Of a stretch of 7,863 nucleotides of DNA, positions 4,885 to 6,589 are shown one piece after another. The notes below the pieces were generated by a model. It saw only the letters and a program-made list of their open reading frames with translations, was not told where the DNA came from and ran no database searches. This stretch comes from a virus (Duplodnaviria > Heunggongvirae > Uroviricota > Caudoviricetes). Numbering within the stretch: position 1 is the first letter of the stretch; each line of letters begins with the position of its first letter. The position numbers were made by a program, and so were the translations under genes. The stretch covers positions 1 through 7,863 of IMG/VR virus record IMGVR_UViG_2548876950_000005, one strand, 5' to 3'.

Positions 4885-5025
4885 ATGCAATATGCCATTG
4901 CAGGGTGGCCTGTTGCTGGCTGCCCTTCCGAATCTTTACTTGAGCGAATCACACGTAAATTACGTGACGGATGGAAACGCCTTATCGACATACTTAATCA
5001 GCCAGGAGTTCCAAAAAATGGATAA
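4885..5025 (+). CDS. cIII: CIII-like protein (inhibitor of FtsH-mediated CII degradation), 46 aa
   Basis: MQYAIAGWPVAGCPSESLLERITRKLRDGWKRLIDILNQPGVPKNG is near-identical to lambda CIII as I recall it, but 8 residues shorter. Strong SD AAGGAG 6 nt upstream of ATG 4885. Confidence 0.8.
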   Translation: MQYAIAGWPVAGCPSESLLERITRKLRDGWKRLIDILNQPGVPKNG

Positions 5026-5131
5026 AACACTTATGGCTATCCAGACTAAATTCACTATCGCCACTTTTATTGGCGATGAAAAGATGTTTCGTGAGGCCGT
5101 CGAAGCCTACAGGAAATGGAGGTCAAAATGA
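5018..5131 (+). CDS. kil: Kil-like protein, 37 aa
   Basis: MDKTLMAIQTKFTIATFIGDEKMFREAVEAYRKW… matches my recollection of lambda Kil (MDQTLMAIQTKFTIATFIGDEKMFREAVDAYKKW…) and overlaps the cIII 3' end as in lambda. SD GGAG upstream. Confidence 0.65.
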   Translation: MDKTLMAIQTKFTIATFIGDEKMFREAVEAYRKWRSK

Positions 5132-5316
5132 TTCCGGTAGAACTGGCGAAAACTCCAGAGTTAAGTCGATTAAAAAGAGAATATCACATTGCTGAGGCTC
5201 GTTACTGGCGTAAAGCGGGAGATAAATCAAAGAAACAACTTTGTTTATGGCAGGCACAAAGAGAGCGCATGAATGAGCGCGAGTTTCTTTCCTCCCCATC
5301 CGAATTACCATTCTGA
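5128..5316 (+). CDS. Hypothetical protein, 62 aa, in the position lambda gam would occupy
   Basis: ATG 5128 with GGAGG SD 5 nt upstream; ATGA overlap with the kil stop. Product MIPVELAKTPELSRLKREYHIAEARYWRKAGDKSKKQLCLWQAQRERMNEREF…; not similar to Gam. Confidence 0.45.
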   Translation: MIPVELAKTPELSRLKREYHIAEARYWRKAGDKSKKQLCLWQAQRERMNEREFLSSPSELPF

Positions 5317-5324
5317 GGCAAATT

Positions 5325-6005
5325 ATGGGAACTGCGACATTAATACTCGGTGAGTCTGGCACCGGAAAATCAACCAGCATGAGAAATATCAATCCAGAGG
5401 AAGCAATACTTATAAAACCAATAGGCAAGCCGCTACCATTTAAATCAAAAGACTGGCTTGCATGGGATGCCAGAGCAAAAAAAGGAACCGTAGTTACCAC
5501 TGACAAATGGGACGTAATAGTTGCCGTAATTAAGCGTGCTCACGAATACGGGAAAAGAATCGTTATTGTTGATGACTTCCAGTATGTGATGAGCAATGAG
5601 TTTATGCGCCGCTCAGAAGAAAAATCGTTTGATAAATTTACTGAGATAGGCCGTCACGCATGGGAGGTCATTAAGGCTGCGCAGGATGCGCCTGATGACC
5701 TGAGAGTCTATTTTCTTGCGCACACCGAAGAAACTCCTATGGGGCGTGTGAAAATGAAGACTATCGGCAAAATGCTGGACGAGAAAATCACTGTCGAAGG
5801 CATGTTTACTATAGTTCTTCGCACCCTTACCCGTGATGACCAGTTCTTTTTCACCACAAAAAACAACGGTGCAGACACTGTTAAATCCCCAATGGGAATG
5901 TTTGATTCCAATGAGATTGATAACGATCTCTCTTTCGTCGATGCCACTGTTTGTGATTACTACGGCATCAATAATGTTCATCAAATTAAGGAAAACGCCG
6001 CATGA
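5325..6005 (+). CDS. P-loop NTPase, probably a Sak4/AAA_24-like recombination ATPase
   Basis: Walker A LILGESGTGKST at residues 6-17; Walker B RIVIVDDF; about 226 aa; GAGG SD. Sits where the lambda recombination genes lie and is coupled to a DUF669-like gene. Confidence 0.65.
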   Translation: MGTATLILGESGTGKSTSMRNINPEEAILIKPIGKPLPFKSKDWLAWDARAKKGTVVTTDKWDVIVAVIKRAHEYGKRIVIVDDFQYVMSNEFMRRSEEKSFDKFTEIGRHAWEVIKAAQDAPDDLRVYFLAHTEETPMGRVKMKTIGKMLDEKITVEGMFTIVLRTLTRDDQFFFTTKNNGADTVKSPMGMFDSNEIDNDLSFVDATVCDYYGINNVHQIKENAA

Positions 6006-6589
6006 GCAACGTGATTTTTACTTATAACGAAGAAGCAGCACTGACCGCAGGGCAAGGTGGTTTTATTAACGAAACTGGTGCTCATATCATTACCATTACT
6101 GAAGCAGAACTAAAGCAATCAGAAAAAGGAGCCAAATTTATTGAGTTTTCTGGCGAATCTGACGACGGACGTAAAATCCAATATCTTGGCGTCTGTGTTC
6201 AGAAAAATGACGGAACGGAAAACAAATTTGGCGCAAATGTCGTTCACGCCATGATGGGGTGTGCCGGGATTGGACAATTAACGCAGCATATGGTTTCCGC
6301 CAGTAAATTTGTTGCACCTGAATTTCATGGAAAGAAAATCGGGTTAGTGCTCCAGAAAGTATTAACCACAAACAAAAAGACTGGCGCAGACAGCTACCAG
6401 ATGGAAATACGCATCCCGTTTATTGCACAAACAGGTCAAACCCTTAAAGAAAAGGCAGAAGGCAAGCAACCAGAAACTATCGCCAACATGGTTGCCAATC
6501 TCAAAGATAAAGACAATCGCTCTAAAAACGTAAGCCAGAATCATGCAGATGATTATGGTTACAGCCAGAACGATTACCCTCCTTTCTGA
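6002..6589 (+). CDS. DUF669-like protein (usual partner of Sak4-type ATPases)
   Basis: ATGA start/stop overlap with the ATPase gene. Size (195 aa) and overall sequence pattern are consistent with my recollection of DUF669 proteins; unverified. Confidence 0.55.
   Translation: MSNVIFTYNEEAALTAGQGGFINETGAHIITITEAELKQSEKGAKFIEFSGESDDGRKIQYLGVCVQKNDGTENKFGANVVHAMMGCAGIGQLTQHMVSASKFVAPEFHGKKIGLVLQKVLTTNKKTGADSYQMEIRIPFIAQTGQTLKEKAEGKQPETIANMVANLKDKDNRSKNVSQNHADDYGYSQNDYPPF

Follow-up and report, generated by a model that had tools for sequence, protein, structure and literature searches.

The stretch of DNA analyzed in this study (7,863 nucleotides (nt), positions 1 to 7,863 of the IMG/VR virus record IMGVR_UViG_2548876950_000005, Caudoviricetes; hereafter the window) carries on its + strand the early-left (pL) operon of a lambdoid prophage, which comes after a lambdoid immunity region. 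The analysis concerns the genes at and downstream of kil in this operon. The genes, all on the + strand, are cIII (4885-5025), encoding a 46-amino-acid (aa) short form of the FtsH-inhibitory lysogeny factor; kil (5018-5131), encoding a 37-aa short form of the host division inhibitor; orf62 (5128-5316), an open reading frame (ORF) for a 62-aa protein; the genes for an ATPase of 226 aa (5325-6005) and a protein of 195 aa (6002-6589); and abc2 (6613-6909), encoding anti-RecBCD protein 2. A first-pass annotation had given the coordinates and ORFs of kil, orf62, the ATPase and the 195-aa protein correctly. It had ended the module at 6589, however, and abc2 was missed. It had also described the genes following kil as linked throughout by start-stop overlaps. 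ATGA overlaps were indeed found between kil and orf62 and between the ATPase gene and the 195-aa gene (6002-6005), but orf62 and the ATPase gene are separated by a gap of 8 nt (TGA GGCAAATT ATG), which includes a GAGG Shine-Dalgarno sequence. On its other side, kil overlaps cIII by 8 nt.

The same gene order, cIII-kil-hkaM-hkaL (sak4)-hkaK (ssb)-hkaJ (abc2), is found in phage HK620 (NC_002730), and the gene lengths are the same in the window and HK620 (141, 114, 189, 681, 588 and 297 nt, respectively). The HK620 proteins are colinear with those of the window, and non-colinearity was excluded. BLASTP comparison with the HK620 counterparts showed identities of 61/62 (98%) for the orf62 product, 225/226 (99.6%) for the ATPase and 192/195 (98.5%) for the 195-aa protein, and Kil is identical at 36 of 37 residues. 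Hereafter, orf62 is referred to as hkaM, the ATPase gene as sak4 (hkaL) and the 195-aa gene as ssb (hkaK). The comparison leads us to consider it very probable that the segment 5128-6909 is an HK620-type homologous-recombination ('Rec') module of the pL operon of a lambdoid prophage, located 3' of a lambda-like cIII-kil segment.

The Walker A (GESGTGKS, residues 9-16) and Walker B (IVIVDD, residues 79-84) motifs of the ATPase can be read directly from its sequence. The first-pass annotation had described this protein as Sak4/AAA_24-like, and the hidden Markov model (HMM) searches agree: the protein matched PHROG 2872 ('Sak4-like ssDNA annealing protein', E 3.9e-108, residues 1-220 against a profile of length 219) and, above the cut-off of 27 bits, Pfam AAA_24 (30.2 bits, E 5e-7). 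It is a single-domain protein of 226 aa without extra N- or C-terminal domains, as expected for a family of about 220-230 aa. An ssb gene adjoins approximately 80% of sak4 genes (PMC5928155), and the overlap with ssb places the window gene among them. By sequence, the ATPase is Sak4, a core-only RecA/Rad51 paralogue and putative ATP-dependent single-strand annealing protein. Binding and annealing of single-stranded DNA (ssDNA) by the HK620 Sak4 are ATP-dependent (PMC5928155), and the same activities would be expected of the window Sak4 from its identity to the HK620 protein.

The 195-aa protein would be the cognate phage single-stranded DNA-binding protein (SSB; also SSB_HK620 or 'SSB-2', and DUF669-named in databases). 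It matched PHROG 743 ('single strand DNA binding protein') with E 2e-66. Its predicted fold is OB-like, and the nearest solved structures are those of ssDNA binders. The C-terminal tail (...DDYGYSQNDYPPF) is identical to that of HK620, including the terminal NDYPPF. Residues 177-195 showed a predicted local distance difference test (pLDDT) score below 50, and the protein thus has a disordered acidic tail. Among 34 homologues of the SSB the terminal Phe is invariant, and most end in PF or DDIPF. HkaK has been established as a bona fide SSB (PMC5928155). Sak4 alone is weak, and addition of HkaK raised recombineering from 15-fold to 210-fold over background (PMC5928155). Stimulation of Sak4 by HkaK was seen both in vivo and in vitro; it requires the last six residues, NDYPPF, which are also needed for the loading of Sak4 onto SSB-coated ssDNA (PMC5928155).

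The protein encoded by abc2 matched Pfam Anti-RecBCD_p2 over positions 1-97 of 97 (117.7 bits) and PHROG 656 (E 1e-43). Its identity to the HK620 Abc2 is 60/98 (BLASTP), as against 98-99.6% for the neighbouring Sak4 and SSB; the N-terminal 11 and the C-terminal approximately 25 residues are kept, and the middle has diverged. The window Abc2 thus appears to be another mosaic segment or a distinct allele from that of HK620. Abc2 is described in the P22 literature as a RecC-binding protein that hijacks RecBCD (PMC5928155, PMC12315714). By analogy, the window Abc2 would be the RecBCD-directed component of the module. Such hijacking would explain why the module has neither an exonuclease nor Gam.

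On the basis of these assignments, the module may work as follows. Abc2 would bind and redirect the host RecBCD, so that resected ssDNA is supplied by RecBCD and neither a phage exonuclease nor Gam is needed. The phage OB-fold SSB would coat the ssDNA made by RecBCD, and the exposed C-terminal tip of the SSB, NDYPPF, would recruit Sak4. Sak4, a RecA-core-only ATPase, would then bind the ssDNA and anneal complementary strands in an ATP-dependent manner. The 62-aa HkaM would be an accessory, encoded by the first gene of the module. In recombineering assays of the HK620 module, sak4 and ssb alone matched the level of the four-gene module; hkaM was dispensable for oligonucleotide recombineering, and abc2 added nothing (PMC5928155).

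HkaM was described as an 'orphan' in the experimental study of HK620 (PMC5928155). The window protein matched PHROG 1723 (E 1.6e-33), and no Pfam or NCBIfam match was obtained. NCBIfam gave nothing meaningful for Kil, Sak4, SSB or Abc2, either. In the AlphaFold2 model, helices 10-30 and 33-49 form a hairpin, and the core scores above 90 in pLDDT; the tail beyond the hairpin is disordered and ends in SELPF. A Foldseek search of the Protein Data Bank (PDB) with this model returned helical-hairpin matches only, none of which was significant (E>3).

The Escherichia coli 0H25 plasmid-prophage encodes Kil and HkaM proteins identical to those of the window, with RefSeq accessions that are also those of the source genome, and these genes are followed there by a gene of the Erf/Rad52 family, a canonical ssb and abc2. 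Salmonella phages L and ES18 carry HkaM homologues that are 66-68% identical, with a 37-aa kil upstream and erf downstream. The Salmonella phage GE_vB_TR, the weakest tblastn match for HkaM, was left out as an UNVERIFIED record with many frameshifts. HkaM homologues were also found in contigs L012, L013, L015, L016 and L018-L021. A 60-aa homologue (P0012) precedes HNH, ERF and SSB genes, ERF and SSB genes, or the genes for a 287-aa AAA_24 protein, a canonical SSB and Abc2, depending on the contig. Remote homologues detected by profile search only (E ~1e-4) precede ERF in metagenomic contigs. In every context examined, the annealase gene comes directly after hkaM, whether the annealase is a Sak4 of 226 aa, an AAA_24 protein of 287-290 aa or an ERF. 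Since the same homologue precedes ERF or AAA_24 in different contigs, HkaM is tied to the annealase slot and not to Sak4. The family is small (19 clusters in a word-indexed search and 21 when 1.8 billion representatives were searched in full with a profile), and it is enterobacterial wherever the source names the organism.

The C-terminal Pro-Phe of HkaM (C-terminal peptide REFLSSPSELPF) is kept in nearly all full-length members, down to a profile E of ~1e-4. The tails in the family are SELPF, GKIPF, DELPF, NRMPF, GEPPF, GETPF and GPCPF, and they recall the SSB tips DDDIPF and NDYPPF. A literature search on 'hkaM' and on C-terminal mimics of SSB returned unrelated papers only. A canonical phage SSB located beside the AAA_24 annealase in contig L016 (3400-3903) has 17 extra residues after the sequence DDDIPF (…DDDIPFAPIGLQFSRHSIHAI). 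Such an extension, perhaps due to read-through or to an error in sequencing, would bury the usual terminal tip.

Several points weigh against the interpretation of 5128-6909 as a functional Rec module. The function is transferred from the near-identical (98-99.6%) HK620 proteins, and at 61% identity to the P22-like Abc2 of HK620, the RecBCD-modifying behaviour of the window Abc2 is less certain. The first-pass label 'DUF669-like' for the 195-aa protein is consistent with the 'DUF669 domain-containing' name given by NCBI/UniRef to 99%-identical proteins and with Hutinet et al. (PMC5928155), who equated DUF669 and the SSB_HK620 type. The Pfam DUF669 model, however, gave no match to the protein even at E<=10 (hmmscan, Pfam-A), and none of the 120 homologues has an entry in the precomputed Pfam column. 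Searches of PDB with the SSB profile and with the Sak4 sequence gave no match at E<=1. The ATPase and its partner might be some other P-loop system, such as a defence or replication-loading module, as the weak and generic Pfam matches (AAA_24, 30 bits; AAA_22, 27.7 bits) and the NCBI labels 'ATP-binding protein' or 'AAA family ATPase' would allow. The PHROG match to Sak4 and the location of the pair between kil and abc2, the canonical slot of a Rec module, speak against such a system, and the 99.6% identity to the biochemically characterized HK620 Sak4 (PMC5928155) effectively refutes it; we regard it as almost certainly wrong. The expression of the module in the window prophage is also uncertain, given the short N-like ORF and the decayed genes of a sister prophage. 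It would be conceivable, though rather unlikely in our judgment, that the module is intact-looking silent cargo of a decaying prophage, without a current role for the element. The N-like ORF (3770-3976, + strand, 68 aa, GTG start) matches Pfam N_peptide at positions 44-100 of 100 only, and the RefSeq annotation pipeline (PGAP) designates this region an incomplete 'regulator' with its N-terminus missing. In a 100%-identical prophage, rusA is interrupted by a stop codon, ninF is partial and the early-left operon contains an IS1203; terminator-like hairpins are located at 4800-4815 and 4837-4856, upstream of cIII. Against these signs of decay, the six ORFs from cIII to abc2 are all full length, their identity to the ORFs of viable phages (for example HK620 and JEP4) is 98-100%, and a 68-aa arginine-rich N initiated from the GTG at 3770 is possible.

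For HkaM itself, two readings were weighed. The first-pass annotation had suggested that the 62-aa ORF might stand in functionally for lambda Gam, or act as an anti-defence factor of another kind, and shield linear DNA from RecBCD. Its place directly after kil, which is that of gam in lambda, and the orphan status of its function would agree with this suggestion. The BLASTP comparison with lambda Gam, however, gave a best alignment of 3 residues (E 28), and no fold match was found among solved structures; HkaM as Gam was thus rejected. More importantly, a dedicated RecBCD modifier, Abc2, is already present in the module, and Abc2 accompanies the HkaM homologues of HK620, L, ES18, E. coli 0H25 and contig L013. 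Since Abc2 would supply the RecBCD-directed function, there would be no vacant Gam role for HkaM. An anti-RecBCD function of HkaM is therefore unsupported and, in our view, very unlikely. A somewhat less remote reading is that HkaM is a generic annealase accessory, the positional equivalent of P22 Arf, with an SSB-mimicking C-terminal tip (hydrophobic-Pro-Phe-COOH). The constant location directly upstream of an annealase of any type, even among remote homologues, the helical hairpin with a disordered tail in the predicted model and the nearly universal terminal Pro-Phe point in this direction. The reading draws on sequence and context, and there are observations against it: sak4 and ssb without hkaM reach whole-module recombineering (PMC5928155), several family members have no acidic residues ahead of the PF, and the last hkaM codons fall in a conserved DNA linker, which may explain part of the tail conservation among close relatives. 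HkaM has the position of Arf before the annealase, but BLASTP gave no alignment with P22 Arf at E<=100, and homology to Arf was rejected. The accessory reading, in which the HkaM tip would dock to the pocket that receives such tips on host SSB partners or on the phage annealase, thus seems unlikely to be correct. We may tentatively describe HkaM as a small, previously undescribed 'pre-annealase' family of enterobacterial lambdoid phages that is always encoded directly upstream of Erf or Sak4. The proposal includes an invariant, SSB-mimicking Pro-Phe tip by which HkaM would recruit the annealase or host proteins that interact with SSB, or compete for them, during recombination; as a whole, we would not expect it to hold. 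Nevertheless, HkaM is the one point that could matter, as a conserved companion of different annealases whose SSB-like Pro-Phe tail suggests protein docking.

The boundaries of the Rec module were analyzed by comparison with lambda and with phages that carry other annealases. The cIII thermoregulator RNA element (Rfam Lambda_thermo, RF01804) is located at 4872-4930 on the + strand, and covers the ribosome-binding site and start codon of cIII. The Rfam model was matched over its full length with 88.5 bits (gathering score 50, E 3.7e-21). The cIII protein (Pfam Lambda_CIII, 106 bits) is identical to that of lambda at 46 of 46 residues, but is 8 aa shorter than the 54-aa lambda protein because TCA is changed to TAA at 5023-5025. 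The same base change converts Q3 of Kil to K. The HK620 cIII has the same short form, and its annotation notes the internal stop.

Kil covers all 31 positions of Pfam Lambda_Kil (PF06301, 76.8 bits). Residues 1-34 are identical to those of lambda Kil at 31 of 34 positions, through W34, and the window protein ends after a total of 37 aa, as against 47 in lambda. The window Kil terminates with WRSK* and lambda Kil with WILILKLRSSKSIH; after W34, lambda continues with ILILKLRSSKSIH. The last 3 of the 37 residues of the window Kil thus differ from the last 13 of the 47 residues of lambda Kil. At the DNA level, the segment 4828-5121 is identical to lambda at 282 of 294 positions (95.9%). Only 6 mismatches and 1 indel were found in 4828-5094, and 6 further mismatches are located in 5095-5120, within a zone of decaying homology that corresponds to Kil codons 26-35 (5095-5121). 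From 5121, the homology to lambda is gone; the identity of approximately 41% in 5122-5340 is noise. The first-pass proposal of a recombination breakpoint within the 3' end of kil was borne out by this alignment over cIII-kil-gam, in which homology stops at Kil codon 34/35 and kil is colinear with lambda over residues 1-34 only, not over its whole length. The breakpoint is considered to be real because of the 31/34 identity through W34 followed by a divergent, shorter end. Neither in the window nor in the 100%-identical prophage, which runs to xis and int, was gam, bet or exo found in the part of the early-left operon that follows kil. The absence of these genes downstream of kil was thereby upheld, as was the proposed modular exchange, in which a Sak4-type ATPase and a DUF669/SSB-type partner stand in place of the lambda Red genes.

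The breakpoint in kil, however, is not the boundary of the recombinase cassette. A conserved linker at 5299-5328 (TCCGAATTACCATTCTGAGGcaAATTATGG) comprises the 3' end of hkaM, the Shine-Dalgarno sequence GAGG and the ATGG that begins the recombinase gene. This 30-nt linker (TCCGAATTACCATTCTGAGGnnAATTATGG) is identical save 2 nt among the window and HK620, where sak4 comes next, and L, ES18 and E. coli 0H25, where erf comes next. Directly after the ATGG of the linker, the sequences are unrelated (Sak4 versus Erf), and the Sak4- and Erf-type modules become homologous again precisely at the start codon of abc2. Since the linker is kept, the sequences after it are unrelated and homology is back at abc2, the exchanged cassette is sak4 and ssb, about 5329-6610, bounded by the start codons of sak4 and abc2. 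The junction in kil was rejected as the boundary of this cassette, as homology among the relatives breaks at the starts of sak4 and abc2; it is a separate mosaic boundary that is specific to the comparison with lambda. The locus can accordingly be read as a mosaic of a lambda-like cIII-kil patch ending at Kil codon 34/35, a separate unit made of the short kil 3' end and hkaM that is common to Erf-type modules, the exchanged cassette, and abc2 as a further segment with an allele unlike that of HK620.

The module is widespread. The 2.15-kb region 4800-6950 was found at a coverage of at least 80% and an identity of about 97-98% in 64 phage records, which include JEP4, TL-2011a and many Stx1a- and Stx2a-converting phages, and the segment 5128-6589 was covered to at least 80% in 179 of 5426 complete E. 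coli genomes. The whole window was covered to at least 80% by no phage record. The combination of Sak4, 'SSB-2' and Abc2 of HK620 is one of the Rec-module types listed for 325 lambdoid phages (PMC12315714). The module is therefore already known and the present finding is a rediscovery: it was sequenced in 2001 (Clark et al.), Sak4 was assigned to its family in 2010, the module was dissected experimentally and biochemically in 2018 (Hutinet et al., PMC5928155), and it was catalogued among lambdoid Rec modules in 2025. The practical value of the finding lies in annotation, since RefSeq entries designated 'hypothetical protein' or 'ATP-binding protein' can be renamed HkaM, Sak4 annealase, cognate SSB and Abc2. 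The module is also a clean, if unsurprising, illustration of the swapping of lambdoid recombinase cassettes at conserved linkers on gene boundaries.

The remaining features of the window are as follows. The immunity region contains cII (510-809) and a cro-like gene (907-1131) on the - strand and a CI-like repressor gene (1243-1950) on the + strand. A DUF3024 protein (1988-2329, + strand; Pfam, 106 bits) and a 173-aa ORF (2481-3002, + strand), the latter without a Pfam match at E<=0.01, adjoin the 3' side of the repressor gene, in the position of lambda rexA/rexB. They are candidates for lysogen-expressed morons or exclusion genes. In the region of approximately 770 bp at 3000-3770, no ORF matches a family or is annotated in RefSeq, and the GC skew is strongly negative at about 3150-3600. 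This region is presumably the OL/pL/nutL control region. An arginine-rich stretch, KAREIRKLERARKHKE, is located at the start of the N-like ORF and might be an RNA-binding motif. Downstream of abc2, a DUF2737 gene (6920-7087) and an ead/Ea22 gene (7084-7806) are located on the + strand.

Finally, the module can be compared with known systems. The closest is the HK620 module, with which it shares gene order, gene lengths, gene overlaps, the truncated cIII, the 37-aa Kil and the NDYPPF tail; the differences lie in the Abc2 allele (61% identity), in the immunity region around the module and in the ea genes downstream of it. Among the systems closest to the 195-aa SSB alone are PrgE of plasmid pCF10 (PDB 8s4s) and other OB-fold ssDNA-binding proteins.

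The lambda gam-bet-exo genes occupy the same slot in the pL operon, right after cIII-kil, and do the same job, namely phage homologous recombination and ssDNA annealing. The proteins, however, are unrelated. The lambda annealase is the Rad52-like Beta, whereas that of the window is a RecA-core ATPase, and the window module has no phage exonuclease but has a dedicated phage SSB. RecBCD is blocked by Gam in lambda, whereas in the window module it would be hijacked by Abc2. The P22 arf-erf-abc1-abc2 module and the kil-hkaM-erf-(ssb)-abc2 modules of L, ES18 and 0H25 resemble the window module in being composed of a small leader gene, an annealase, a partner and abc2. L, ES18 and 0H25 also share with the window a 37-aa Kil, an HkaM homologue (66-100% identical) and the 30-nt linker that precedes the annealase start, whereas Arf and Kil of P22 are unrelated in sequence to HkaM and the window Kil. 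In all of these modules, the annealase is the Rad52-like Erf instead of Sak4, and the place of the DUF669-type SSB of the window is taken by Abc1 or by an SSB of the canonical bacterial type.

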